Below are positions 5,140-54,220 of a DNA stretch of 64,000 nucleotides, one piece after another. The notes below the pieces were generated by a model that saw only the letters and a program-made list of their open reading frames with translations, was not told the DNA's origin and ran no database searches. Each line of letters opens with the position of its first letter. The first letter of the stretch is position 1. Both the position numbers and the translations under genes were made by a program. The DNA comes from a phage, in assembly GCA_017686895.1 (NCBI GenBank), contig GCA_017686895.1_4521.1. One strand, 5' to 3'.

Positions 5140-5736
5140 ATGCGAAACCAAAATAATGATATTGACTCAATGTTCGAAGAGTTCCGAGATAAGGTAAATC
5201 CACCTACGTCTTTAGTTGATTCATTACGATATGTTGCAACCGGACGTAAATGGTACTGGTCATCTTCTTATGAGACAACTGAATATGCAAATAACCGAAA
5301 ATCTTTATTAGCCCCAGGTATCATGATTAATGATATCGGAGCTATTGCTAAACTAGTTGCAGACCATGATATTAGATTCACTGATTTCGTTGCTCCTACG
5401 TGGTCTGTTTGTTGTTTAAACACTGAATGGGAATATATCAGCGAACGCTCTGAAGATTATTATGGTTTTAGAGATAAGCTTCTGAGGTCTAATATGTTTT
5501 ATATCGATACAGAAGTTCTAGTCGATAATAAAAAATACTACTTTACGTTAATCGTCGATTCTGAAACTATGTATGAAGGCAAGCCTTTGCTTAAGAGAGT
5601 TGATGCTTTAAGTGCTATTGATGCGCTTTATGAAACTATGGTTGTTAGTCCTAATTTCACTAACAATTTAATCCTTGAGCAATTTATTATGGAATGTAGA
5701 GAATATGTCAAAGCCAACCCTATACATGCCAAGTAA
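5140..5736 (+). CDS. hypothetical protein with EQFIMECRE motif near C-terminus
   Basis: ATG at 5140 after AAAGGAG RBS; C-terminal region carries the ExF(I/V)xECR tail shared with four downstream genes. Confidence 0.5.
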   Translation: MRNQNNDIDSMFEEFRDKVNPPTSLVDSLRYVATGRKWYWSSSYETTEYANNRKSLLAPGIMINDIGAIAKLVADHDIRFTDFVAPTWSVCCLNTEWEYISERSEDYYGFRDKLLRSNMFYIDTEVLVDNKKYYFTLIVDSETMYEGKPLLKRVDALSAIDALYETMVVSPNFTNNLILEQFIMECREYVKANPIHAK

Positions 5737-6100
5737 GCCCTGGGCGTATGAATACAAGCGTAAATTAATCCCAAATGAAGTACTATTTGGCCCTATTTTA
5801 GCTTTAGCATTTTTAATCTTTATGATTATAGGAGCCGTTTTAGATTCTAGTGAAGTTATATCGTCTGATGCAGCATTTTCATTAATGTTCGTCGCACCAC
5901 TTATTGTACCGTTTTTATTAATGCCTATTAACTGGATGGGATATTGGTACCAAGGACGTCATCACAGGGCCCGATTAAGAGAATGGAAAGTTCAGTGCGC
6001 AAAAGCCCAAGCTCAGTATGATGAAGCTGTTAAAAAGTATGAATATGAAGAAGCTATGGAATTCGTTAAGGAAATAAGATGCAAAAGCCTTAACTCTTAA
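5705..6100 (+). CDS. small membrane protein with EFVKEIRCK tail
   Basis: Two predicted TM helices (LFGPILALAFLIFMIIGAVL, FSLMFVAPLIVPFLLMPINW); start chosen at ATG 5705 (track start 5675 is TTG). Confidence 0.4.
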   Translation: MSKPTLYMPSKPWAYEYKRKLIPNEVLFGPILALAFLIFMIIGAVLDSSEVISSDAAFSLMFVAPLIVPFLLMPINWMGYWYQGRHHRARLREWKVQCAKAQAQYDEAVKKYEYEEAMEFVKEIRCKSLNS

Positions 6101-6141
6101 CCGTATGGCCTTCTCTTGGTGAGAACATTCTAATTTTTATT

Positions 6142-6438
6142 ATGAGTATTGGCATGGGATTTGCCTTTGGATTAGTTGGATTTATTATTGACGGCGTTGT
6201 GTTAGGATTTATAGGGAACACTGGTGGATTCACAGATCAATGGCAGGACTTACGGTATACCCAAGCCTTTGCATCCATCGCATCATTTTGTACTGTAGTC
6301 TATTTTTACTACAATTTTATAAACCATAACAAGAAAAATAAAAAAGTTTACGCTTCTCAAATGATTAGTTATAATGAACTCCTAGCTAGACGTGAAAATG
6401 AAACAATCGAAAACTTTATTAAGGAATGTAGAAAATGA
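6142..6438 (+). CDS. small membrane protein with ENFIKECRK tail
   Basis: Hydrophobic N-terminal half; ends ENFIKECRK. Confidence 0.5.
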   Translation: MSIGMGFAFGLVGFIIDGVVLGFIGNTGGFTDQWQDLRYTQAFASIASFCTVVYFYYNFINHNKKNKKVYASQMISYNELLARRENETIENFIKECRK

Positions 6439-6740
6439 GTAAGATTATTGAAATTAAAGTACCAGAGTTTAATGATGCCAAATCCGCTTCAGATGCAATT
6501 TATAAACTTCTGAATCAAGCTGAACGTATCGAAGAAGAAGCTACAAAGATTGCAGACCAATATGCAGTATCGTTTTCTGTAGGTGATTATGGTAGCGGTC
6601 GTACTTATTATCCTAAGGGTGAAATCGTATCCCAGTGGATGAAAGATGAAATTGAAAATAATGGCGGCGATGTTAAGCGTGAAGGTAATGGATACGTTAT
6701 TACTGAAGGTGCTTGGGTTTCATCTTCTGCGTTGTGCTAA
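6435..6740 (+). CDS. small protein, WVSSS-C tail family member 1
   Basis: Ends GAWVSSSALC; ATGA overlap with upstream gene. Confidence 0.5.
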   Translation: MSKIIEIKVPEFNDAKSASDAIYKLLNQAERIEEEATKIADQYAVSFSVGDYGSGRTYYPKGEIVSQWMKDEIENNGGDVKREGNGYVITEGAWVSSSALC

Positions 6741-6749
6741 GGAATCATT

Positions 6750-7022
6750 ATGTCTAAAGAACAAACCGAACTGGCTGAAGCTGTAGCAAAAATCTATGCA
6801 GTTATTGAGGCTGCCAAAGAAATTGCTGATAAACAAAACACAACATTCGACTTGTATCCAGCTTATGGTATGGGTGGAACGTATTATTCTCCTGGATTCT
6901 TGAAAAAAGAACTTGAGCATTATACCGAACAAGGCAATCCGAATTGGGCCACTGTCAACCAACACTCATATTACACCAGCCTCGAATCAGGTGGTTGGGT
7001 TGCATCTTCTATGGAATGCTAA
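6750..7022 (+). CDS. small protein, WVSSS-C tail family member 2
   Basis: Ends GGWVASSMEC; preceded by TAAGGAATCATTATG junction. Confidence 0.5.
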   Translation: MSKEQTELAEAVAKIYAVIEAAKEIADKQNTTFDLYPAYGMGGTYYSPGFLKKELEHYTEQGNPNWATVNQHSYYTSLESGGWVASSMEC

Positions 7023-7031
7023 GGAAATCAT

Positions 7032-7229
7032 ATGTCTCGTGAATTAGATTGTGCTGTACGTACGGCAGTAGCTGCTCTGGAAAACCTGTTCCAAATTGCA
7101 ACAGAAGAACGCGAAGAAGTTACATTATGGATTGAAGATAACGCAGGTCTGAATCTCCAGGACGCGATCTCATTATCCCACAATAGTATCACTGTTCAAG
7201 GCTGGGTATCATCTAGTTATTCTTGCTAA
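7032..7229 (+). CDS. small protein, WVSSS-C tail family member 3
   Basis: Ends QGWVSSSYSC; preceded by TAAGGAAATCATATG junction. Confidence 0.5.
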   Translation: MSRELDCAVRTAVAALENLFQIATEEREEVTLWIEDNAGLNLQDAISLSHNSITVQGWVSSSYSC

Positions 7230-7233
7230 AACA

Positions 7234-7263
7234 GTTTACAACAAGATAGGGCTATGTTATAGT
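7234..7263 (+). promoter_or_regulatory. early promoter inside a palindrome (approximate coordinates)
   Basis: GTTTAC, 18 bp spacer, TGTTATAGT; -10 flanked by ATAGGGCTA / TAGTCCTAT inverted repeat. Confidence 0.55.
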
Positions 7264-7291
7264 AGTCCTATCAAATTAAATGGAGACAACA

Positions 7292-7532
7292 ATGGTTTAT
7301 TACGAAAGTATCGGAACCGAAGTAGTTGCTAAAACTATTACTCGTGAAAAGTTTGCAAAGATATTCGATATGCGTTATAAAAAAATCTGAACACAAAGGC
7401 ATCCGATTCGAAGATGCGCACTGTACAATTTGCCCTTATAATGAAGACATAAACGGCACAATCGTTCCATTGGTAGAGGCTTCACATGACGACCTCTGGG
7501 ATGAATATAATATCGCATGTCGCGAAATTTAA
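7292..7532 (+). pseudogene. small Cys/His-containing protein gene interrupted by a frameshift at an A7 tract
   Basis: ATG 7292 with good RBS reads 31 codons into A7 run (7379..7385) then stops at 7388..7390; the +1 frame continues as track ORF 7326..7532 (SEHKGIRFEDAHCTICPYNEDINGT...). Confidence 0.4.
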
Positions 7533-43648: not shown

Positions 43649-46360
43649 ATGAAAGAATTTTACTTAACGGTTGAACAGATTGGTGATTCAATTTTTGAAC
43701 GTTACATCGATTCTAATGGCCGTGAACGTACTCGTGAAGTAGAATATAAACCATCACTGTTTGCTCATTGTCCAGAAAGTCAGGCTACGAAATATTTCGA
43801 TATCTACGGTAAGCCGTGTACTCGTAAGTTGTTCGCTAATATGCGTGATGCCTCCCAATGGATTAAACGCATGGAAGATATCGGACTTGAAGCACTTGGC
43901 ATGGACGATTTCAAATTGGCGTATTTGTCTGACACTTATAACTATGAAATCAAATACGACCATACAAAAATTCGTGTGGCTAACTTCGACATCGAAGTAA
44001 CATCTCCGGATGGGTTCCCTGAGCCGTCACAAGCAAAACATCCAATTGATGCTATCACCCATTATGACTCAATTGATGACAGGTTCTACGTATTTGATCT
44101 ATTGAATTCTCCATATGGTAATGTAGAAGAATGGTCTATTGAAATCGCTGCTAAGCTTCAAGAACAAGGTGGTGATGAAGTTCCATCTGAAATTATCGAT
44201 AAAATCATTTATATGCCATTCGATAATGAAAAAGAATTGTTGATGGAATATCTCAACTTCTGGCAACAGAAAACTCCTGTCATTTTGACTGGATGGAACG
44301 TTGAGTCATTTGATATTCCATATGTGTATAACCGAATCAAGAATATTTTTGGCGAATCTACTGCGAAACGTTTATCACCACATCGTAAAACTCGTGTTAA
44401 AGTTATCGAAAACATGTATGGTTCTCGTGAAATCATTACATTGTTCGGTATCTCTGTTCTTGATTATATCGACCTTTACAAAAAATTCTCTTTCACAAAC
44501 CAACCGTCGTATTCTCTGGATTACATTTCAGAATTTGAATTGAATGTCGGTAAACTGAAATATGACGGTCCTATTTCTAAACTTCGTGAAAGTAATCACC
44601 AACGATATATTTCTTATAACATTATCGACGTGTATCGTGTATTGCAAATTGATGCTAAACGCCAGTTCATCAACTTGAGTTTGGACATGGGTTATTATGC
44701 TAAGATACAGATTCAATCTGTGTTTAGCCCAATTAAAACATGGGATGCTATTATTTTTAATAGCCTTAAAGAGCAGAACAAGGTGATTCCACAAGGTCGT
44801 TCTCACCCGGTTCAACCTTATCCTGGCGCTTTTGTTAAGGAACCTATTCCAAATCGATACAAATATGTAATGAGTTTCGACCTTACATCTCTGTATCCAA
44901 GTATTATTCGCCAAGTGAATATTAGCCCAGAAACAATAGCAGGAACGTTTAAAGTAGCTCCATTGCATGATTATATTAACGCAATCGCTGAACGTCCTTC
45001 AGATGTGTACAGTTGCTCTCCTAACGGCATGATGTATTATAAAGACCGTGACGGTGTAGTTCCAACCGAAATCACCAAGGTCTTTAATCAACGTAAAGAA
45101 CATAAAGGTTATATGCTTGCTGCTCAACGTAACGGTGAAATAATTAAAGAGGCATTGCATAATCCTAATCTTTCTGTTGATGAACCATTAGATGTTGATT
45201 ATCGTTTCGACTTCACTGACGAGATTAAAGAAAAGATTAAAAAGTTGTCTGCTAAATCTCTTAATGAAATGTTGTTTAGAGCTCAACGTACTGAAGTTGC
45301 AGGTATGACTGCCCAAATTAACCGTAAATTGCTCATCAACTCGCTTTATGGTGCACTTGGCAACGTTTGGTTCCGTTATTACGATTTGCGTAATGCTACT
45401 GCAATCACAACATTTGGTCAAATGGCTTTACAATGGATTGAACGTAAAGTTAATGAATATCTGAATGAAGTTTGTGGTACAGAAGGTGAAGCTTTCGTTC
45501 TTTATGGTGATACAGACTCTATTTACGTATCTGCTGATAAAATTATCGATAAGGTTGGTGAATCTAAATTCCGTGATACCAACCATTGGGTAGACTTCTT
45601 AGATAAGTTCGCACGTGAACGTATGGAACCAGCTATTGATAAAGGTTTCCGTGAAATGTGTGAATACATGAACAATAAACAACACTTAATGTTCATGGAC
45701 CGAGAAGCTATCGCTGGTCCTCCGCTTGGTTCTAAAGGTATTGGTGGATTCTGGACTGGTAAGAAACGTTATGCATTAAACGTGTGGGATATGGAAGGAA
45801 CTAGATACGCTGAGCCTAAACTCAAAATCATGGGTCTAGAGACTCAGAAATCTTCGACCCCTAAAGCAGTACAGAAAGCTCTTAAAGAATGTATTCGTCG
45901 TATGCTTCAAGAAGGTGAAGAATCATTACAAGAATATTTTAAAGAGTTTGAAAAAGAATTCCGTCAATTGAATTATATTAGCATCGCGTCGGTATCTTCT
46001 GCGAATAACATTGCTAAATATGATGTAGGTGGATTCCCTGGTCCTAAATGTCCGTTCCATATTCGTGGAATTCTGACATATAACCGAGCTATCAAAGGTA
46101 ATATTGATGCTCCACAAGTTGTAGAAGGTGAAAAAGTATATGTTCTGCCTTTACGTGAAGGAAACCCATTCGGTGATAAATGTATCGCATGGCCTTCTGG
46201 TACTGAAATCACAGATTTAATTAAAGACGACGTACTTCATTGGATGGACTACACTGTTCTCCTTGAGAAGACATTTATTAAACCACTTGAAGGATTCACA
46301 TCAGCAGCGAAACTCGATTACGAGAAGAAAGCATCTCTGTTCGATATGTTCGATTTTTGA
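43649..46360 (+). CDS. 43: DNA polymerase gp43 (family B, 3'-5' exonuclease)
   Basis: 903 aa; exo motifs FDIE and YNIIDV, polymerase motifs DxxSLYPS, KILINSLYG, YGDTDS. Confidence 0.97.
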   Translation: MKEFYLTVEQIGDSIFERYIDSNGRERTREVEYKPSLFAHCPESQATKYFDIYGKPCTRKLFANMRDASQWIKRMEDIGLEALGMDDFKLAYLSDTYNYEIKYDHTKIRVANFDIEVTSPDGFPEPSQAKHPIDAITHYDSIDDRFYVFDLLNSPYGNVEEWSIEIAAKLQEQGGDEVPSEIIDKIIYMPFDNEKELLMEYLNFWQQKTPVILTGWNVESFDIPYVYNRIKNIFGESTAKRLSPHRKTRVKVIENMYGSREIITLFGISVLDYIDLYKKFSFTNQPSYSLDYISEFELNVGKLKYDGPISKLRESNHQRYISYNIIDVYRVLQIDAKRQFINLSLDMGYYAKIQIQSVFSPIKTWDAIIFNSLKEQNKVIPQGRSHPVQPYPGAFVKEPIPNRYKYVMSFDLTSLYPSIIRQVNISPETIAGTFKVAPLHDYINAIAERPSDVYSCSPNGMMYYKDRDGVVPTEITKVFNQRKEHKGYMLAAQRNGEIIKEALHNPNLSVDEPLDVDYRFDFTDEIKEKIKKLSAKSLNEMLFRAQRTEVAGMTAQINRKLLINSLYGALGNVWFRYYDLRNATAITTFGQMALQWIERKVNEYLNEVCGTEGEAFVLYGDTDSIYVSADKIIDKVGESKFRDTNHWVDFLDKFARERMEPAIDKGFREMCEYMNNKQHLMFMDREAIAGPPLGSKGIGGFWTGKKRYALNVWDMEGTRYAEPKLKIMGLETQKSSTPKAVQKALKECIRRMLQEGEESLQEYFKEFEKEFRQLNYISIASVSSANNIAKYDVGGFPGPKCPFHIRGILTYNRAIKGNIDAPQVVEGEKVYVLPLREGNPFGDKCIAWPSGTEITDLIKDDVLHWMDYTVLLEKTFIKPLEGFTSAAKLDYEKKASLFDMFDF

Positions 46361-46400: not shown

Positions 46401-47036
46401 ATGAAAACTACACCAATCACTATCGCTATTGACGCAATCGTAAAACAAGCTTCTTCTTTGGCTACTATGGCCAAAGTAATTAGTCAAAACCCTGCTCGTT
46501 ATAATGCTATTCTAGAAACTCTTCGACGCCCTGGACTGAGTAATTATGAAAGCCGAGTAATTATTACAGGTGTTGGTAAGAACGCTAATATCGCAACTAA
46601 AGCTTCCGAGACTTTTGCTTCACTAGGTATTCCTAGCATGTATTTGAACACCGGGCATTATTCTCATGGCGACGCAGGGTTTATTGCACCTAATGATGTA
46701 TTAGTTCACATCAGTCGTTCTGGTAAGACTGAAGAAATGATAGGTGTTGCTAAACATCTTCGTATGATTCGTCCTCAGGTTAAACAGATTCTGTTACATT
46801 GTAACCCTGACATTCCGCAAGAATACGAAGCTCTTTTTGATTATACGTTCTGTACAGGCATCGCGGTAGAGGTTGATGAGAATTCTCTGGCTCCGACCAT
46901 GTCCACTACATTGTTGTTAGCGCTTATCGATACGTTTGCTATCAACCTTTCGTCTGAACGTGGATTTACCTCTAATGACTTCCTTAAGTTCCACCCTGGT
47001 GGTGCACTAGGTGCCATGTTACGAGGCGAACAATGA
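46401..47036 (+). CDS. SIS-domain phosphosugar isomerase (KdsD/GutQ-like arabinose-5-phosphate isomerase without CBS domains)
   Basis: RVIITGVGKNANIATK, HISRSGKTEE and C-terminal FLKFHPGGALGAMLRG match the KdsD-type SIS domain as I recall it; 211 aa. Confidence 0.8.
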   Translation: MKTTPITIAIDAIVKQASSLATMAKVISQNPARYNAILETLRRPGLSNYESRVIITGVGKNANIATKASETFASLGIPSMYLNTGHYSHGDAGFIAPNDVLVHISRSGKTEEMIGVAKHLRMIRPQVKQILLHCNPDIPQEYEALFDYTFCTGIAVEVDENSLAPTMSTTLLLALIDTFAINLSSERGFTSNDFLKFHPGGALGAMLRGEQ

Positions 47037-47217: not shown

Positions 47218-48903
47218 ATGAAAAAAGCTGTTATTCTTGGTGCTGGACTGGCAACTCGTTTGTATCCAATAACGCACCATATTCCTAAGGTGCTTGTTAA
47301 CTATAAACAAGACACTATTCTGAGCAATTTGTATACAATTTATTCTGACCTTGGTGCAGATGAAATTATTGTAGTAGTTCATTCAAAATTTGTTGAAACT
47401 GTTCGAGCTTATTGTGAGCAAGAAGGGTTCAATGTGACTATTCGTACAGTTGATGAAGCGTATGGTTCTGCTTATGCTCTTGCTAAATTATACAAAGATT
47501 TAGATGGCCATAACGTAATTGTTAACTGGTGTGATATTATTCCTGATTTTGGTTCATGGTCTTGGAATGTTAACGCAATCTATGTTAAGGGTGATGAATG
47601 TCGATATAATTTCGATGGTGAAAATATCACTAACGTAGGTTCAACAGGCGGTAATGTTGTAGGAATTTATCAGTTCAAAGACTGGGAATTCTATATGGGT
47701 TCTACTGATGAGGAAATTCATGAATACTGCAAAGGGCGTGATTTCGTAGAATTCCTTTACGGCAGTGCATTCAATAAATCAGAGCTTATGAATCTAATTG
47801 ATTTAGGTGATATGCCTAAACTTGAAAAAGCTCATGAAGTTCGTGAACTTAATCGTAGTTTTAATGCAGTTGAAATTGGTGAAGAAACTGTAACTAAATT
47901 CGCATTAACCGAACAGGGACGAGCTCTTCAGAAAGATGAGATTTCGTGGTATCTTAAAGTGAAATCAGATTCAGTTCCTCAGTTAGTTTCTGTTAATGAA
48001 AATAACTTTGAAATGGAACGCATTAAAGGTAAGCCAGCATTTGAATATATTAAATCCAAATCAAGTCTTGCTCGTCCACAAATTGTTGATGCAATTTTAG
48101 ATGCACTGAAATTCAGCACAGACACTTATTTTGTAAGTCCTGAAACTGTTCGTCGTGATTTCACTAAAGAATTCTATACGAAAGTTATTGATCGTTGTGA
48201 AAGCATTCAACCATTGATTGATTCATTTGGTAAAATCACACATGTGAACTACACTAAGATTGGACGTCTGAAGCCAATGCTGAAACAAGCTTTAGAACAC
48301 CTTATTCGTTATCATAACCGTTCTCAGGGACAGTACTCTGTTATTCATGGTGACCCGAACTTCAGTAATACTATGATTACTGATAACGGCGAAGTCAAGT
48401 TTATCGACCCTCGTGGATATTTTGGCGAAACCAAGATTTACGGGCCAAAATTGTACGATGAAGCTAAAGTGCTTTATGCTGTTTCAGGTTATGATGAATT
48501 CAATGCTAATCCGACCTGGGGACAGTTTACTATTGATGAAACAACTTGTAATGTGACTATTAACATCAATCCATTAATTTACAAATATGGAAAGATGAGT
48601 TCGTTTAACGAGTATCATCATTTGGCGGTGGCAATTATCTGGATTGCATTAGGTGGTTATTTCAAGAATAATCCACTTAAAGCGGTAGCCGCATATTATA
48701 AAGGTATGGAACTTCTGACTAAGCAATTACGCAACATGGGCCGTGTACTTCAAGACGGCTCTATTAGTTATGACGTAGCAGAACCTGTAACGGCTACTCT
48801 GATTACAAAAAATCCTGGTAAATGGGTACTAACTGATAAAGAAACTGGTGTTTCCTATCGTCCAATCGGTGGCGATATCACTCATCAATGGGAACGAATC
48901 TAA
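47218..48903 (+). CDS. bifunctional sugar-phosphate nucleotidyltransferase / APH-ChoK-fold kinase
   Basis: N-terminal AVILGAGLATRLYPITHHIPKVLV (sugar nucleotidyltransferase G-x-G-x-R-L-x-P-x-T motif); C-terminal VIHGDPNFSNTMI and FIDPRGYFG (aminoglycoside/choline kinase Brenner and DxE-like motifs). Confidence 0.75.
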   Translation: MKKAVILGAGLATRLYPITHHIPKVLVNYKQDTILSNLYTIYSDLGADEIIVVVHSKFVETVRAYCEQEGFNVTIRTVDEAYGSAYALAKLYKDLDGHNVIVNWCDIIPDFGSWSWNVNAIYVKGDECRYNFDGENITNVGSTGGNVVGIYQFKDWEFYMGSTDEEIHEYCKGRDFVEFLYGSAFNKSELMNLIDLGDMPKLEKAHEVRELNRSFNAVEIGEETVTKFALTEQGRALQKDEISWYLKVKSDSVPQLVSVNENNFEMERIKGKPAFEYIKSKSSLARPQIVDAILDALKFSTDTYFVSPETVRRDFTKEFYTKVIDRCESIQPLIDSFGKITHVNYTKIGRLKPMLKQALEHLIRYHNRSQGQYSVIHGDPNFSNTMITDNGEVKFIDPRGYFGETKIYGPKLYDEAKVLYAVSGYDEFNANPTWGQFTIDETTCNVTININPLIYKYGKMSSFNEYHHLAVAIIWIALGGYFKNNPLKAVAAYYKGMELLTKQLRNMGRVLQDGSISYDVAEPVTATLITKNPGKWVLTDKETGVSYRPIGGDITHQWERI

Positions 48904-49289
48904 TGCACCGTGTAGAAAACATGCTTAATCTTTGTTTTGATGTCGATGATTGTATAACAGAGTGGAATAACAATCGTGATTACGTGAACTTCAAACCAGA
49001 CGTCGAAATGGTGTCTGCCATTAATGCCCTGTATGATGCAGGGCATACCATAACGCTTTACACTGCTCGTGGTATGAAGTCAGTAGGTCCTGGTCGTATA
49101 GCAATTGACATTCTCCCAAGTCTGATTCAGAACTTGGCAAACATTGGCTTGAAGTACCATAATTTGCTAACACATAAACCAGTATATGATTGGATTATCG
49201 ACGACAAAGCTATGCGTCCTGACGAATTCAAAGCTCTTATGAATAAAGGCGAATTCGAAACATTTAAATCATATAAACCGAATCTATAA
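48903..49289 (+). CDS. HAD-superfamily phosphatase
   Basis: Motif I FDVDDCIT (DxDxT), motif III-like K-x-DWIIDDK; TAATG overlap with upstream gene. Confidence 0.65.
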   Translation: MHRVENMLNLCFDVDDCITEWNNNRDYVNFKPDVEMVSAINALYDAGHTITLYTARGMKSVGPGRIAIDILPSLIQNLANIGLKYHNLLTHKPVYDWIIDDKAMRPDEFKALMNKGEFETFKSYKPNL

Positions 49290-49335: not shown

Positions 49336-50505
49336 ATGCAAAAAATGAATACTTTTAAAATCGGAACGAATTTTGATTTAGCTCTTCTTGATAAAATCGT
49401 AGAGCTCAATAAAACCTATCCTAATAGCTTGATAAACGAAGTATATGGCTCTACAAGAGAAATGGCTTTTGTAGCAGCCAGACCTGATTTTAGGCTTCCT
49501 GACGTTGACAAAAAGATGTTAGAAGATTACGTTAAACGTTGTAACGAATTAGGTATTTGCTTTAACTATACACTCAACACGATAAATCCTGGTTCAAAAA
49601 GAGAACTAGTTGAGTGGAAGAAGAAAGCTATTCAGGATTATGTTCAGTATCTTTGGTCAATAGGCGTATGGCGTATTACTATCGCTAACCCTGTTGTTAT
49701 GGAAATTGTTCGTGAAGTCAATAAAGATATTGAGATTGAAGTTTCAACAATTCTACATGTCGATGCGGTAACTCAAATCAAATACTTACATGACCAATAT
49801 AACATCAAAAAGGTCTGTTGCGGAATTCATAAGAACCGTTCAGTTTCTTTCCTGAAGCGTGCAGCAGAGTTTTGCAATAAGAACAATATAATATTTGAAG
49901 TTCTTGTAAATGAGTTCTGTTCTAATGCTGGTAAAGGGTATACAACACATTGTAGTTATCGTGACTCTTGCTATATTTTCCATAGTACTGATGTTACAGC
50001 TGATGATGCTAAATCCTTAAATGGATATCCAATGCAACACTGCATTAAAGCTCGTGATACAGACCCATTTAACTGGTTGAGAACTCGTTTTGTTCGTCCT
50101 CAAGATTTGAAACTTTATAATGATATTGGTATCACTCAATTCAAAGTTTCAGGACGTACAGGTAGCACAGACTACATTTTGAAAGTTCTTGAAGCATACG
50201 CTTCTGAAAAGTTTGAAGGTAATTTGTTAGAACTGTGGAAGCCTTTAGAGACTATTTTCACTCTTGAAAATGAGACTGAGTTTTCACATACAGTAAATAT
50301 TGAAACCTCTTTGTTAGATGGCTTTTTAGAAAAAAGGTGGTTCAGACATCCAGATTTTGATTGTGCTAATGAAATCTGTGGGTCAACGTGTACATATTGT
50401 GAAAGGTATTATAAACGTCAATTATCTAAAAACGGGTTAGCAGAAAACTCCATATCTATTATTGATATAACTAACTCTGATGACGCTTTGAGGTACCCGG
50501 AATGA
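49336..50505 (+). CDS. Cys-rich protein with peptidase-U32-like features (tentative)
   Basis: EVLVNEFCSNAGKGYTTHCSYRDSC resembles the U32 signature region; many cysteines including C-terminal CGSTCTYC (Cx3Cx2C); family not confirmed. Confidence 0.3.
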   Translation: MQKMNTFKIGTNFDLALLDKIVELNKTYPNSLINEVYGSTREMAFVAARPDFRLPDVDKKMLEDYVKRCNELGICFNYTLNTINPGSKRELVEWKKKAIQDYVQYLWSIGVWRITIANPVVMEIVREVNKDIEIEVSTILHVDAVTQIKYLHDQYNIKKVCCGIHKNRSVSFLKRAAEFCNKNNIIFEVLVNEFCSNAGKGYTTHCSYRDSCYIFHSTDVTADDAKSLNGYPMQHCIKARDTDPFNWLRTRFVRPQDLKLYNDIGITQFKVSGRTGSTDYILKVLEAYASEKFEGNLLELWKPLETIFTLENETEFSHTVNIETSLLDGFLEKRWFRHPDFDCANEICGSTCTYCERYYKRQLSKNGLAENSISIIDITNSDDALRYPE

Positions 50506-50741
50506 TTTCTAGAAAAAGTTTTAATTATAAACTTAACGAAGAGATTTTGACTATGAAACTGAACACTAACGAACAAATTCTTAAAAAGGCCCTTATGGGC
50601 CTGTTTGAAACCAAAGCGGCTAAAGTGATTAAAGAACCTGTTCAATTGGAATACTACACTGATGCATTCCTTCATAGTGTTCTTGGAAGTATAGATTCTG
50701 AAGCTTTACGTTATATCAACATTGTCAAGAAATTCAAATAA
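50502..50741 (+). CDS. hypothetical protein
   Basis: 79-aa ORF, ATGA overlap. Confidence 0.4.
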   Translation: MISRKSFNYKLNEEILTMKLNTNEQILKKALMGLFETKAAKVIKEPVQLEYYTDAFLHSVLGSIDSEALRYINIVKKFK

Positions 50742-50764
50742 GCTTTATGAATTGAGTATATAAT
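50742..50764 (+). promoter_or_regulatory. candidate middle promoter (approximate coordinates)
   Basis: GCTTTA box, 11 bp, TATAAT, about 20 bp upstream of ATG 50784. Confidence 0.4.
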
Positions 50765-50783
50765 AAATTGTATTGAGGTAAAT

Positions 50784-51500
50784 ATGGGAAAACATAACAC
50801 AATGAAATATATCAAAGCCGCAGATTTTCAAACCGCATTTAAAGCAGTCAATCGTGAAATTTTAGAAAACCCCGAATTCGTAACTGATTCTCGTATTGGA
50901 CGTTGTAATGAAATTGGGTCTATGACAGTAGTTGTTGACACTCCATCATCATTCAAAATGACCGACCCACGTATTAACCGCATCTCTTATGAATATGCCG
51001 AAGACTTCTGGAAGTTTATGATTTCTGGTGGTACCAACGCAGAAGAAGCGTTTAAGGCATATCCTAATGTCGCTAAATTTATTTCTAAACCAAAATCAGA
51101 TGTTTTGCCGGCGAACTTCAACACTTTCTATGGTCCTCGCATTGCGGCCCAATTACCAACTCTTCTAAAAGAACTTAAAGAAAAACCTAACTCTCGAAGA
51201 GTTGTGTTCCAAATTCTAGAAAGTTCTGATCAGGCTTTGCTTGATTCGGACGAAACACTTGAATATCCATGTACTGACTCAGTAACTTATTATATTCGTG
51301 ATGGTAAGCTTTATACCCACTGTCATATGCGTTCTCAGAACTGTGCTGTTGTTATGCAGTTGGATTTTTATCTCCAAGGAAAATTACTTCATTATATCGC
51401 TAACGAATGCGGTGTAGAAGTTGGTGATTATACTCATACCATGGTAAGTGCCCATGTGTTTGAACGTGATTTTGATTATGTTAAAGGATTCCTTGACTAA
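50784..51500 (+). CDS. 42: thymidylate-synthase-fold pyrimidine hydroxymethylase (dCMP hydroxymethylase-like, divergent)
   Basis: PNSRRVVFQI, catalytic-Cys region YPCTDSVTYYIRDGKLYTHCHMRSQN and VSAHVFERDF align to the PDSRRGIMIY / MCTNTVQYLIRD..NMRSND / GSLHVYSRHF blocks of T4 gp42 as I recall them. Confidence 0.65.
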   Translation: MGKHNTMKYIKAADFQTAFKAVNREILENPEFVTDSRIGRCNEIGSMTVVVDTPSSFKMTDPRINRISYEYAEDFWKFMISGGTNAEEAFKAYPNVAKFISKPKSDVLPANFNTFYGPRIAAQLPTLLKELKEKPNSRRVVFQILESSDQALLDSDETLEYPCTDSVTYYIRDGKLYTHCHMRSQNCAVVMQLDFYLQGKLLHYIANECGVEVGDYTHTMVSAHVFERDFDYVKGFLD

Positions 51501-52399
51501 TGGCTATTTTCCGCGTACCAATCTTGAGTATGCGGTCTTATGAAACTGGACAGTATGCTATCCTTAAGGATGGCAACTTCCAACTTCATTTGCACCGTGC
51601 TAATCCAGGTGATGTGATTACATATCCACGTAATGCATCTGATATTAAAGAATGCGAACGTCTTTTCCCAGAATTTAAGTTTGTTCCATTATGGTATAAA
51701 GATAACGCGTATAACACTCGTAAATATTTCTGGTCTGAAAATGAATTTGTGGTTGATTCATTAATTGCTTATTATGATTGTGATTTTCTAATCACAGATA
51801 TCACCGGATATGACGGCGCTTTTGATGTGGAATTCAATTTCAATATCACTGCAGACCCTAATAAACCACGTTTTTATATTGACGAATTCTTAAAAACTGA
51901 TATGTTGTCGGTTAATCGTTCACTTCAAACTACTGTGTTGAATGAACGTCAAAAAGAAGTGCTGGTTAACGCAGGTGCAGATGGTAATAAGATTATCGTA
52001 ACGCAGAAAGTTATACGTCCTTCCATCATGCAGCGTCTTGTAGGTGATTTGGCTCCTATTCATCTAGATGGTATTTTTCATCCATTTCGAATTAGTGACC
52101 CGTGCTATCGTTTTGAACAAGTGGTTGAATGTGCAATTCAATTAGGCCAACCGCTTTATATAACCGATCCAAATAATAGCTTCGACAGAAATAAGTATCC
52201 TGAAGAAGCATTGATTCGAATTTTTAAACCAACTAAAACTGAGTACTATCAAATTCTTAAAGGACGTCCGAAGATTCAATATTTCGAAAATCCTGAAGAA
52301 GTATTCCATCCAGGTCTTGGTGAGTTCATCTACTTTAATGCTTTAATTTCTTCGCCGTATAATATACCTAAATATGAAGATGTCGTAATCGAGGAATAA
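51500..52399 (+). CDS. hypothetical protein at the beta-gt position
   Basis: 299-aa ORF with no recognised motif; TAATG overlap with hydroxymethylase; occupies the slot of T4 beta-glucosyltransferase. Confidence 0.3.
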   Translation: MAIFRVPILSMRSYETGQYAILKDGNFQLHLHRANPGDVITYPRNASDIKECERLFPEFKFVPLWYKDNAYNTRKYFWSENEFVVDSLIAYYDCDFLITDITGYDGAFDVEFNFNITADPNKPRFYIDEFLKTDMLSVNRSLQTTVLNERQKEVLVNAGADGNKIIVTQKVIRPSIMQRLVGDLAPIHLDGIFHPFRISDPCYRFEQVVECAIQLGQPLYITDPNNSFDRNKYPEEALIRIFKPTKTEYYQILKGRPKIQYFENPEEVFHPGLGEFIYFNALISSPYNIPKYEDVVIEE

Positions 52400-52400
52400 A

Positions 52401-52949
52401 ATGGCTAAAATTATTTTAGTAGATGGCCCGGATAATGCTGGTAAAACAACTTTCATTAATGACATAATGGAAATTAGTGAAAGATATGTAAAGATTGATT
52501 TCCCTAAACGAACAGTTGATGGACGTTTCGATGTTAAGTCTCGAAATGAAGTTGGCTGTTTCGAAACTATGTTGAATTATTTAGACCCTACTAAGATTTA
52601 TCTATTAGACCGTGGATATATTAGTAACTGGGTTTATGGACGTATTCGACAAGATGCGGACTCGGTTCTTGACGTTTATGAACAGGATTATGTTCGTCTT
52701 TGCCAAAACCATGATGTGTTCACAATTATTTTAACACGTAACGAAATGACTGAAAGTTTTGAAGACGACCTTATTACTTTGTCTTCATTCGGTTTTAATA
52801 CAGTAATTTCACATTTTGAAGAGTTTGCAATTCATAACGAAATCCAAACGTATCAATTACTTAATCATGATGGTGCTAACAAAGTTATAGGATTTAATGC
52901 AAGCGAACGTAATAATTTGATTACAGAAATCATCAAATGGGCTCGTTAA
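52401..52949 (+). CDS. thymidylate-kinase-like P-loop nucleotide kinase
   Basis: Walker A ILVDGPDNAGKTT and DRGYISNWVYG (Tmk DR-Y-like motif). Confidence 0.6.
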   Translation: MAKIILVDGPDNAGKTTFINDIMEISERYVKIDFPKRTVDGRFDVKSRNEVGCFETMLNYLDPTKIYLLDRGYISNWVYGRIRQDADSVLDVYEQDYVRLCQNHDVFTIILTRNEMTESFEDDLITLSSFGFNTVISHFEEFAIHNEIQTYQLLNHDGANKVIGFNASERNNLITEIIKWAR

Positions 52950-53047
52950 GAGCCATTTAAAGTTTTAAATGCTGTATAACCCTTAGTATATAATCATCTT
53001 ATCTTTTAAACATGAGTAAAATATAATGATGCCTATGGAAAAATACA

Positions 53048-54220
53048 ATGTCTGATTTAAAATCTCGTCTGATTAAAGCTTCTACTTCTAAAATGACTGC
53101 AGACTTGACTAAGTCTAAGCTGTTTAATAATCGTGATGAAGTCCCTACTCGTATTCCAATGTTGAATATTGCACTAGGTGGTGCACTGAATGCAGGGTTG
53201 CAATCAGGCTTAACTATTTTTGCTGCTCCTTCTAAACATTTTAAAACGTTGTTTGGGCTGACCATGGTTGCAGCATATATGAAGAAATATAAAGATGCAA
53301 TCTGTTTGTTTTATGACTCAGAATTCGGTGCTTCAGAATCTTACTTCCGTTCGATGGGTGTTGATTTAGACCGTGTAGTTCATACTCCGATTCAATCCGT
53401 CGAACAACTTAAAGTTGATATGACTAATCAGCTTGACGCGATTGAACGCGGCGATAAAGTTATTATCTTTATCGATTCAATCGGTAATACTGCATCTAAG
53501 AAAGAAACCGAAGATGCGTTGAACGAGAAAGTTGTAGGTGATATGTCTCGTGCTAAGGCACTTAAATCTCTTTTCCGTATTGTGACTCCTTATCTGACTA
53601 TTAAAGATATTCCGTGTGTTGCAATTAACCATACTGCAATGGAAATTGGCGGATTGTATCCTAAAGAGATTATGGGCGGTGGTACAGGTATTCTTTATTC
53701 CGCCAACACGGTATTTTTTATCTCTAAACGTCAGGTTAAAGAAGGTACAGAATTGACCGGTTATGACTTCACGTTGAAAGCAGAAAAATCTCGTACAGTT
53801 AAAGAGAAATCTACTTTCCCGATCACGGTTAATTTCGACGGTGGTATCGACCCATTCAGTGGCTTGTTAGAAATGGCAACTGAAATCGGTTTTGTGGTTA
53901 AGCCTAAAGCTGGTTGGTATGCTCGCGAATTCCTTGACGAAGAAACAGGTGAAATGATTCGTGAAGAAAAATCATGGCGTGCTAAAGCTACTGATTGTGT
54001 AGAATTCTGGGGACCTTTGTTTAAACATAAGCCTTTCCGTGACGCAATTGAAACTAAATATAAACTAGGTGCTATCTCTTCTATTAAAGAAGTTGATGAC
54101 GCTGTTAACGACCTTATTAATTGCAAAGCAACAACTAAAGTTCCGGTTAAAACTTCTAATGCTCCGTCTGCAGCAGATATAGAAAACGACCTTGACGAAA
54201 TGGAAGATTTCGATGAATAA
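53048..54220 (+). CDS. uvsX: RecA-like recombinase UvsX
   Basis: MSDLKSRLIKASTSKMTADLTKSKLFNN ... Walker A and L1/L2 regions; 390 aa, colinear with T4 UvsX. Confidence 0.97.
   Translation: MSDLKSRLIKASTSKMTADLTKSKLFNNRDEVPTRIPMLNIALGGALNAGLQSGLTIFAAPSKHFKTLFGLTMVAAYMKKYKDAICLFYDSEFGASESYFRSMGVDLDRVVHTPIQSVEQLKVDMTNQLDAIERGDKVIIFIDSIGNTASKKETEDALNEKVVGDMSRAKALKSLFRIVTPYLTIKDIPCVAINHTAMEIGGLYPKEIMGGGTGILYSANTVFFISKRQVKEGTELTGYDFTLKAEKSRTVKEKSTFPITVNFDGGIDPFSGLLEMATEIGFVVKPKAGWYAREFLDEETGEMIREEKSWRAKATDCVEFWGPLFKHKPFRDAIETKYKLGAISSIKEVDDAVNDLINCKATTKVPVKTSNAPSAADIENDLDEMEDFDE

Follow-up and report, generated by a model that had tools for sequence, protein, structure and literature searches.

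A thymidylate kinase-like protein at the end of the 5-hydroxycytosine island of an RB69-like phage: a candidate 5-hydroxy-dCMP kinase

Introduction

Which nucleotide could be the substrate of a thymidylate kinase-like protein encoded at the end of a DNA-modification island, in phages where another kinase is known to phosphorylate the modified nucleotide? The question is raised by an open reading frame (ORF) at positions 52401..52949 (+) of a 64,000-nucleotide phage sequence (contig GCA_017686895.1_4521.1 of the GenBank assembly GCA_017686895.1); this whole stretch is referred to below as the window. A sequence-only reading of the window had placed a thymidylate kinase (Tmk)-like enzyme next to a hydroxymethylase and proposed it as a candidate kinase of the hydroxymethylated deoxynucleoside monophosphate (dNMP). 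The analysis presented here leads us, with slightly better than even confidence, to consider the protein as a kinase of C5-modified deoxycytidine monophosphate (dCMP), in this phage of 5-hydroxy-dCMP, which would overlap in function with gp1, the dNMP kinase of T4.

The DNA of RB69 contains arabinosylated 5-hydroxycytosine (5hoC) and not hydroxymethylcytosine (Lee et al., Nucleic Acids Res 2026, PMC13326640). According to the same work, gp48 of RB69 is a flavin-binding, O2-dependent 5-hydroxy-dCMP synthase with a diagnostic Asn at the position of ThyA D169, and gp159, the orthologue of T4 gp1, converts 5-hydroxy-dCMP (5hodCMP) to the diphosphate 5hodCDP. The idea of a kinase in this cluster is not novel, as the gene, its likeness to thymidylate kinases and its membership in the modification cluster are already published (PMC8056088, 2021; PMC13326640, 2026). 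RB69p045 (RB69ORF045c, NP_861735) and gp78 of DLP3 are listed as 'Nucleotide kinase' in Table 1 of PMC13326640, and the RB69ORF045c entry of the Front Microbiol 2021 paper (PMC8056088) reads 'homologs among thymidylate kinases'. No sequence difference sets the present protein apart from RB69p045 and DLP3 gp78; the published entries rest on fold and homology and assign no substrate. The translational coupling and the co-occurrence of synthase, glycosyltransferase and kinase are new here, and the family-wide link to dCMP-directed thymidylate synthase (TS) homologues, the domain fusions and the exception of Morganella phage MP1 may be new as well.

Results

The kinase gene and its conserved motifs

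The ORF was found exactly as described by the sequence-only reading, encoding 182 amino acids with the GPDNAGKTT motif at residues 9-17 and DRGY at residues 70-73 (nucleotides 52608-52619, GAC CGT GGA TAT). The protein was 181/182 identical to RB69ORF045c. In a tblastn search of the phage collection, 344 records were matched, and the ORF was intact in all of them at a coverage of at least 80%. These 344 matches, the 305 representatives of the family described below and the identity to RB69ORF045c indicate that the ORF is a genuine gene and not a chance frame.

Among phages of hosts ranging from Escherichia to Acinetobacter, with overall identities of 45-72%, 37 residues were invariant, and these included every nucleotide-binding motif. 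The P-loop residues G9, D11, N12, G14, K15 and T16 were all invariant in the close family alignment. Where the P-loop of type I thymidylate kinases provides the catalytic Arg (GLDRTGKTT in yeast), an Asn is found here (N12), invariant in the clade. As in Tmk, an acidic P-loop residue (D11) and a DR motif are both present, the third residue of the latter being Gly (G72) followed by Tyr73. In the 61-sequence family alignment R71 was invariant, and D70 and Y79 were conserved in at least 90% of the sequences. The polar, clade-invariant segment from S47 to L58 is a candidate for the base or phosphate contact, with a register relative to the 'NRWE' motif of Tmk that is ambiguous. A single invariant Arg (Arg113) stands at the opening of a short LID-like segment of low model confidence. 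The family-specific motif F-x-D-D-x-I-x-x-S-x-x-x-F-N is without counterpart in canonical Tmk and is retained in the fusion proteins. The coordinates of the motifs are given in Table 1.

Family assignment and predicted structure

The curated Tmk models were not reached by the kinase. PF02223, the Tmk family of Pfam, gave no match at E<=1; TIGR00041 scored 15.8 bits against a cut-off of 83.25 and covered residues 3-28, the P-loop, alone; a single-sequence search of the PDB returned a Tmk at E 0.8 over the P-loop stretch only. PHROG 761, labelled 'thymidylate kinase', was matched at 2e-45. The family profile A2, a 61-sequence alignment from an exhaustive HMMER search (305 cluster representatives, E<=1e-3), matched YorR of prophage SPbeta with an E value of 6.5e-14 and 55 bits (profile positions 2-151, residues 1-144) and the yeast, Aquifex and vaccinia thymidylate kinases with about 1e-10. 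The motifs paired in these profile alignments were the P-loop, F34-P-K-R37 with FPER, D70-R71 with DR, and S75-N76-x-x-Y79 with S..AY.

The AlphaFold (AF2) model, built from 21 homologues, was confident, with a predicted local distance difference test (pLDDT) of 88.3 and a predicted template modelling score (pTM) of 0.84. With this model, the first 24 Foldseek matches were all thymidylate kinases. In the ranking of its structural neighbours the thymidylate kinases came to 13.1-13.7, YorR to 12.2 and PPK2 to about 12, followed by deoxynucleoside kinases at about 10-11 and T4 gp1 at 9.1. The predicted fold is thus that of a nucleoside-monophosphate (NMP) kinase with Tmk as the nearest structural neighbour, and neither sequence similarity nor close structural similarity to T4 gp1 (1dek) was found. 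The model confidence dipped at residues 31-50 and 121-130, both of which would correspond to the mobile NMP-binding and LID parts of NMP kinases.

The thymidylate-kinase likeness asserted by the sequence-only reading therefore holds for structure, profile and motifs, and does not extend to the curated models PF02223 and TIGR00041. The protein appears to be a small ATP-dependent NMP kinase of a family related to YorR and the thymidylate kinases; because the curated models are not reached and the catalytic Arg of type I P-loops is replaced by Asn, its catalytic competence is considered probable only.

The 5-hydroxycytosine island

The window belongs to a Mosigvirus, an RB69-like T4-type phage: over the 6.3 kb around the kinase, the identity was 99.0% with Escherichia phage TH12 and 98-99% with about 150 further records. 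Orthology and synteny place the kinase in the 5hoC glycosylation cluster known as gp45-gp55 in RB69 and gp76-gp83 in DLP3. It closes the island, as the sequence-only reading had stated, being the last gene before uvsX, which starts at 53048. The two other statements about its surroundings had to be revised. The supposed hydroxymethylase was 98.7% identical to RB69 gp48 and carries the signature L143E, C146, D169N and N177D, whereas T4 gp42, the sequence of which was verified (246/246 identical), has D143, D169 and D177; the enzyme is a 5-hydroxy-dCMP synthase. Moreover, the immediate neighbour of the kinase is not the synthase but the 299-aa arabinosyltransferase (51500-52399). As the synthase signature is that of 5-hydroxy-dCMP formation, the candidate substrate is 5-hydroxy-dCMP and not hydroxymethyl-dCMP or hydroxymethyl-dUMP; more generally, a kinase of the modified pyrimidine nucleotide, as proposed, is what the gene context supports best.

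The three genes are tightly arranged. The stop of the synthase and the ATG of the transferase overlap by one base (TAATG at 51498-51502), and the stop of the transferase (TAA, 52397-52399) is separated by one base from the ATG of the kinase. The overlapping stop and start and the one-base gap indicate a tight translational coupling of synthase, transferase and kinase. The equivalent interval of T4 has the order 43 - imm.1 - imm - 42 - beta-gt - segA - uvsX, and no member of the kinase family was present in it.

Co-occurrence of kinase, transferase and synthase

In the same phage collection, 349 records matched the 299-aa transferase and 341 the synthase at an identity of at least 60%, close to the number for the kinase, and the genus breakdown was nearly identical for the three genes. 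The order synthase-transferase-kinase-uvsX was observed in 15/16 Straboviridae loci fetched from IMG/VR, as well as in Morganella phage Rgz1, Acinetobacter phage Ac42, Shewanella phage Thanatos-2 and RB69. Ac42 had been considered as an exception, since the 2021 paper had reported no arabinosylation genes in it, and was rejected as such: the full cluster is present.

A similar order was found outside this group in Rhizobium phage RL2RES (Pootjesviridae), where a D169N synthase is followed by an ORF of glycosyltransferase size, recognized by size alone, and by a remote Tmk-like P-loop kinase. The DNA of Pootjesviridae contains hexosyl- and not arabinosyl-5-hydroxycytosine (PMC13326640). Since RL2RES keeps the synthase-transferase-kinase order with hexosyl-5hoC, the kinase seems to track the base and not the sugar.

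The gene 1 kinase

The rest of the genome had been proposed as the place to look for a gene 1 homologue. None was found in the 64,000-nt window with T4 gp1 as the query, the sequence of which was validated at 100% against T4. Close relatives carry one: in Mosigvirus PNJ-6 the gene 1 homologue is located at 141068-141799 (62.7% identical to T4 gp1) and the orthologue of the Tmk-like kinase at 85503-86048. By the PNJ-6 coordinates, gene 1 is expected about 55 kb from the kinase, just past the left end of the window.

Distant homologues and domain fusions

Distant members of the family (26-32% identity) from unrelated viral contigs were also located in nucleotide-pool modules. The following orders were read, with a question mark for unassigned genes: primase - kinase - MazG - ? 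- TS(N177D) - dCMP deaminase in L018, the TS of which is another Asp177 variant and not of the gp42 type; ThyX - ? - kinase - MazG in L019; PolB - kinase - TS (T4 gp42-type) - alpha-glucosyltransferase - methylase - dUTPase - dCMP deaminase in L034; methylase - kinase - dCMP deaminase - TS (gp42-type) in L035; and MazG - kinase - TS - PolA in the contig of P0201. Every adjacent TS homologue with a readable sequence had Asp at the N177 position, the mark of an enzyme directed to dCMP.

Among the multidomain relatives, the kinase domain was most often fused to an MBD4-like HhH-GPD glycosylase domain with a GxGKYxxDS motif. Such fusions were found in the metagenomic proteins P0059, P0060, P0065, P0067, P0069, P0074, P0076 and P0120 (314-357 aa) and at 70-1092 of locus L024; none was found among the cultured phages of the collection or in IMG/VR. 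L024, the one informative metagenome locus, lies within a replication module, a context that does not decide between a DNA-level and a nucleotide-level link. Other architectures were a fusion to uracil-DNA glycosylase (UDG; P0142) and a tandem duplication of the kinase domain (P0146). The kinase fusions P0078 (MazG-like) and P0162 (TS-like) were judged by eye, and Pfam scored neither of these partner domains.

Comparison with known kinases

Thymidylate kinase (EC 2.7.4.9; PF02223, TIGR00041) shares with the protein the NMP-kinase fold and the motif order of a P-loop with Asp, FPxR, DR, S..(A/V)Y and a short LID. The identity is only 8-19%, and the phage kinase falls short of Tmk by about 20-30 residues and has a reduced NMP-binding region; it differs further by the P-loop Asn in place of Arg, by the FxDDxI...FN motif and by its dCMP-directed TS partners. 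YorR of the B. subtilis prophage SPbeta (PDB 2axp, 3kb2), a protein of unknown function, is similar to the kinase family over the full length of the profile and differs by the absence of the P-loop Gly-Lys-Thr (CCFKS there), of FPKR and of FxDDLI. We know of no modified-base context for YorR. T4 gp1 (PDB 1dek/1del) and RB69 gp159 are proposed as functional analogues, each phosphorylating the C5-modified dCMP produced by a TS homologue.

The 5-hydroxymethyluracil DNA kinases (5-HMUDK; M6 gp54, ViI gp67/gp243, SP10 gp186) are likewise small phage P-loop kinases encoded near a TS-family pyrimidine-modifying enzyme. This family is also sometimes fused to HhH glycosylase-like domains (PMC8989533), a trait shared with the present family. 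It differs in acting on DNA, where a leaving group is made; the O-glycosylation of 5hoC has no such need. Membership in it was rejected: in hmmsearch against M6 gp54, the one member compared, only profile positions 3-33 were aligned to residues 2-30, that is, the P-loop, and M6 gp54 has neither the DR nor the FPxR motif. The neighbourhood is different too, the kinase being accompanied by a synthase directed to dCMP (N177D) and by a glycosyltransferase resembling GT-B, and no aGPT-Pplase was found among the island genes scanned. In the public record of phage M6, the proven 5-HMUDK gp54 is labelled 'terminase small subunit'.

The 'nucleotide kinase' RL38J1 gp214 / RL2RES_098 of Pootjesviridae has the Tmk-like P-loop fold and the third place in the triad of D169N synthase, glycosyltransferase and kinase in common with the protein. 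The RL2RES kinase is only remotely related, with 24 bits to the family profile, on par with human TMPK; its P-loop is type I-like (GLDRTGKDT), and PR stands in place of DR. These proteins may represent an analogous recruitment rather than orthologues. A transposon-mutagenesis preprint naming Bas46 and thymidylate kinase was set aside, as it concerns the Tmk of another phage.

Other features of the island

The features of the island are collected in Table 1. ORF046/047 and ORF052/053, each a split gene in the RB69 reference, correspond in the window to one uninterrupted ORF apiece (299 aa and 561 aa), in agreement with the published claim that these splits are sequencing errors; the first arabinosyltransferase is given as gp46:47 in the RB69 reference (PMC13326640).

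Table 1. Coordinates of the kinase gene, its motifs and the neighbouring genes in the window
Feature	Coordinates	Strand	Remark
Tmk-fold P-loop kinase gene, 182 aa, ATG start	52401..52949	+	Orthologue of RB69ORF045c / RB69p045, DLP3 gp78, Thanatos-2 TH2_067
GAGGA, ribosome-binding site of the kinase	52391..52395	+	Within the end of the upstream gene, five bases before ATG
Walker A / P-loop, G9-P-D-N-A-G-K-T-T17	52425..52451	+	Aligned to yeast and vaccinia Tmk
F34-P35-K36-R37	52500..52511	+	Pairs with FPER, which binds phosphate in human and yeast thymidylate kinase
S47-R48-N49-E50 ... F54-E55-T56-M57-L58, polar, clade-invariant, NMP-binding segment	52539..52574	+	pLDDT 70-73
D70-R71-G72-Y73-I74-S75-N76-W77-V78-Y79-G80	52608..52640	+	Counterpart of the Tmk DR(Y/H)xxSxxAY motif
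R113, then F120-E-D122-D123-L-I125 ... F132-N133, short LID-like segment	52737..52799	+	pLDDT dip to 68
DNA polymerase	43649-46360	+	Upstream of the island
211-aa ORF at the place of the relatives' arabinose-5-phosphate isomerase gene	46401-47036	+	Identity by position alone
AfhE-like bifunctional kinase/nucleotidyltransferase, 561 aa	47218-48903	+	Sugar-activation part
HAD phosphatase	48888-49289	+	Sugar-activation part of the island
U32-family protein	49336-50505	+	PF01136 at 7e-11; weak UbiU match
79-aa ORF	50502-50741	+	Upstream part of the island
TS homologue, 5-hydroxy-dCMP synthase, RB69 gp48 orthologue	50784-51500	+	PF00303 at 1.9e-15
299-aa DNA arabinosyltransferase 1 (RB69 gp46:47, intact here)	51500-52399	+	PHROG 3891; PMC13326640 Table 1
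uvsX, conserved core gene bounding the island	53048-54220	+	Starts after the kinase

The U32 protein has a C-terminal Cys cluster, CANEICGSTCTYC. The characterised bacterial U32 members (RlhA, TrhP, UbiU/V) are O2-independent, prephenate-linked hydroxylases, and RlhA forms 5-hydroxycytidine in rRNA. Prephenate is the product of chorismate mutase, whose gene in Morganella phage Rgz1 separates the U32 gene from that of the 5-hydroxy-dCMP synthase. These observations, made at 49336-50505 (+) of the window and at 5667-7400 of locus L020, suggest that the U32 protein could provide an anaerobic back-up route to 5-hydroxycytosine. Its RB69 counterpart, gp50, is labelled merely 'sugar or heterocycle reductase' in PMC13326640.

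By reading, AAGCTTTA upstream of the synthase gene, followed by TATAAT 11 bases on, resembles a T4 middle (MotA-box) promoter (50735-50765 of the window), and a similar promoter-like sequence, TGCTGTA...TATATAAT, was read downstream of the kinase, before uvsX (52960-53010). In a scan for consensus (sigma-70) promoters and terminators, sites were no more frequent than in shuffled sequence.

The public annotations of the island are unreliable in L001 (PQ572755.1) and other records. The arabinosyltransferase is commonly labelled as 'RNA polymerase binding protein'; the HAD phosphatase is given as 'phosphoheptose isomerase', the 79-aa ORF as 'P-loop NTP hydrolase' and the synthase as 'thymidylate synthase' or 'dCMP hydroxymethylase'.

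Discussion

The proposed role and the evidence that weighs against it

The kinase is the third, translationally coupled gene of what would be a functional synthase-arabinosyltransferase-kinase unit. In the pathway suggested by this arrangement, the kinase would phosphorylate 5-hydroxy-dCMP, the product of the synthase, to the diphosphate; the nucleoside diphosphate (NDP) kinase of the host and the phage polymerase would then insert 5-hydroxycytosine into DNA, to which the transferases would add arabinose. In the T4-like phages the core dNMP kinase of gp1 type would share in the first phosphorylation. The Tmk-like enzyme would accordingly be the cassette's own and probably more specific kinase, and not an indispensable one.

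Several findings weigh against this proposal. The expression of gp48 and gp159 suffices for 5-hydroxydeoxycytidine in the DNA of E. coli (PMC13326640), which shows that the Tmk-like kinase was not required for the phosphorylation of 5hodCMP in that assay. No enzymology of the kinase or of RB69p045 was found in the literature, in a search that was incomplete, so that direct tests may exist. The failure to reach the curated Tmk models and the Asn at the catalytic Arg position of the type I P-loop count here as well. In L016 (IMGVR_UViG_2974769608_000001) the kinase is placed after the sugar-activation genes and not after the transferase, and in Tenacibaculum phage PTm5, which has a D169N synthase, no member of the kinase family was found within 6 kb. 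Finally, the best-scoring fusions contain the MBD4-like DNA glycosylase domain, which hints that the family may be connected with DNA and not with the nucleotide pool.

A clean exception is Morganella phage MP1 (NC_031020), the whole genome of which was read as loci L028-L031. No synthase, transferase, AfhE-like, HAD, U32 or isomerase genes were found in the whole genome, which has the classical td only. Nevertheless, an intact kinase gene lies at 20001-20531 of L028, flanked directly by those of DNA polymerase and UvsX, and none of the 37 clade-invariant residues is lost. The kinase is therefore not confined to carriers of the synthase, though nearly all records have both, and MP1 argues for a 5hoC-independent role of the kinase or for a cluster that was lost recently. 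Between MP1 and Rgz1 the kinase was 60% identical, compared with 92% for UvsX. Our confidence in a kinase of C5-modified dCMP is kept just above even because no enzymology was found, because gp159 was sufficient in the published assay and because of the counter-example of MP1.

Some further observations were made at these exceptional loci. The rearranged island of L016 (3975-10323) has the order AfhE-like - HAD - kinase - U32 - ... - synthase - transferase - uvsX, with the kinase detached from the synthase-transferase pair. In PTm5, a distant phage of jumbo type (L023, 3716-7570), the D169N/N177D TS homologue is flanked by genes annotated as 'guanylyltransferase' and 'histidine phosphatase' and accompanied by a 280-aa ORF; these genes possibly form a further system of 5-hydroxycytosine glycosylation, served by a phosphatase of another kind. 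In MP1, a DenB-like endonuclease IV and an 'inhibitor of host transcription' are annotated, and the protein encoded at the position of gp56 is labelled 'dUTPase'.

Alternative explanations

The retention in MP1 of the gene and of all its invariant residues without the 5hoC genes would also be expected from a plain auxiliary kinase of dTMP, or of dNMPs broadly, which would raise the dNTP supply without preference for modified nucleotides and would stand in the island for historical reasons. The best structural and profile matches are indeed genuine thymidylate kinases, and many databases carry the label 'thymidylate kinase'. We regard this explanation as unlikely, as 342/344 kinase records belong to genera carrying the synthase and the transferase with nearly identical counts, T4 has the same dTTP needs without this gene, and gp1, the specificity of which covers dTMP in T4, is already present in these phages. 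In addition, the distant homologues adjoin dCMP-directed and not dUMP-directed TS homologues, and the scores remained far from the curated dTMP-kinase models. Rather less probable still is another phosphorylation step, either of 5hodCDP to 5hodCTP, which would give independence from the host NDP kinase Ndk, or of UMP/UDP to UTP, by which the UDP-arabinose donor would be supplied or recycled. The kinase stands beside the synthase also in Pootjesviridae, whose hexoses come from universal UDP-sugars, accompanies hydroxymethylcytosine-type and other TS homologues without arabinose genes, and is kept in MP1, where the sugar genes are absent. In thymidylate kinases the Asp of the P-loop and the S-N-x-x-Y-type motif touch the 3'-OH and select against nucleotides with a 2'-OH; the conservation of these sugar-contact residues suggests a deoxynucleoside monophosphate as the substrate.

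A role at the level of DNA, as a base or end kinase resembling the 5-hydroxymethyluracil DNA kinases of thymidine-hypermodifying phages or as a partner of a repair glycosylase, is suggested by the top multidomain relatives (E 6e-19 to 7e-6), which are fused to the MBD4-like HhH-GPD domain, and by the UDG fusion; P-loop kinases acting on DNA bases also have a precedent (PMC8989533). We consider it very improbable: according to PMC13326640, the arabinose is ether-linked via the 5-oxygen, so that a phosphate leaving group is unnecessary, and no phosphate is reported there for the mature base. The match of the family to M6 gp54, a proven 5-HMUDK, is confined to the P-loop, the conserved NMP-binding motifs of Tmk type suit a mononucleotide, and the sole readable context of a fusion (L024) is an uninformative replication module. 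Equally improbable is a vestigial or non-catalytic P-loop protein, which would serve in regulation or be left over from the cassette after gp1 had made it redundant. Its redundancy with gp159 in the published assay (PMC13326640), the missing Arg of the type I P-loop and its faster evolution than that of the flanking core genes, as seen from the MP1/Rgz1 values above, would fit such a relic, but MP1 too retains the 37 invariant residues with all nucleotide-binding motifs, none of the 344 records has an interrupted ORF, and the translational coupling is preserved.

Significance

For the family as a whole we propose tentatively, at somewhat less than even confidence, a distinct group of C5-modified-dCMP kinases, related to YorR and Tmk, unrelated to gp1 and mobile with the cassettes, which would serve hydroxylated, hydroxymethylated and perhaps other cytosines and would act in T4-like phages as a specificity gate passing 5-hydroxy-dCMP and not dCMP on to the diphosphate. 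As the gene and its kinase likeness are published and the gp1 homologue is known to perform the step, a dedicated 5-hydroxy-dCMP kinase would be a testable refinement and not a surprise. If true, it would complete the nucleotide-level half of the 5-hydroxycytosine pathway and explain why the synthase-transferase-kinase cassette recurs in unrelated phage families. Such an enzyme would be a practical part for producing DNA with 5hoC or with glycosylation, whether in vitro or by engineered hosts. In combination with the D169N synthase, it would also serve as a genomic marker predicting cytosine-replaced phage genomes, a prediction relevant to phage therapy, to sequencing and to the resistance of phages to restriction and CRISPR.

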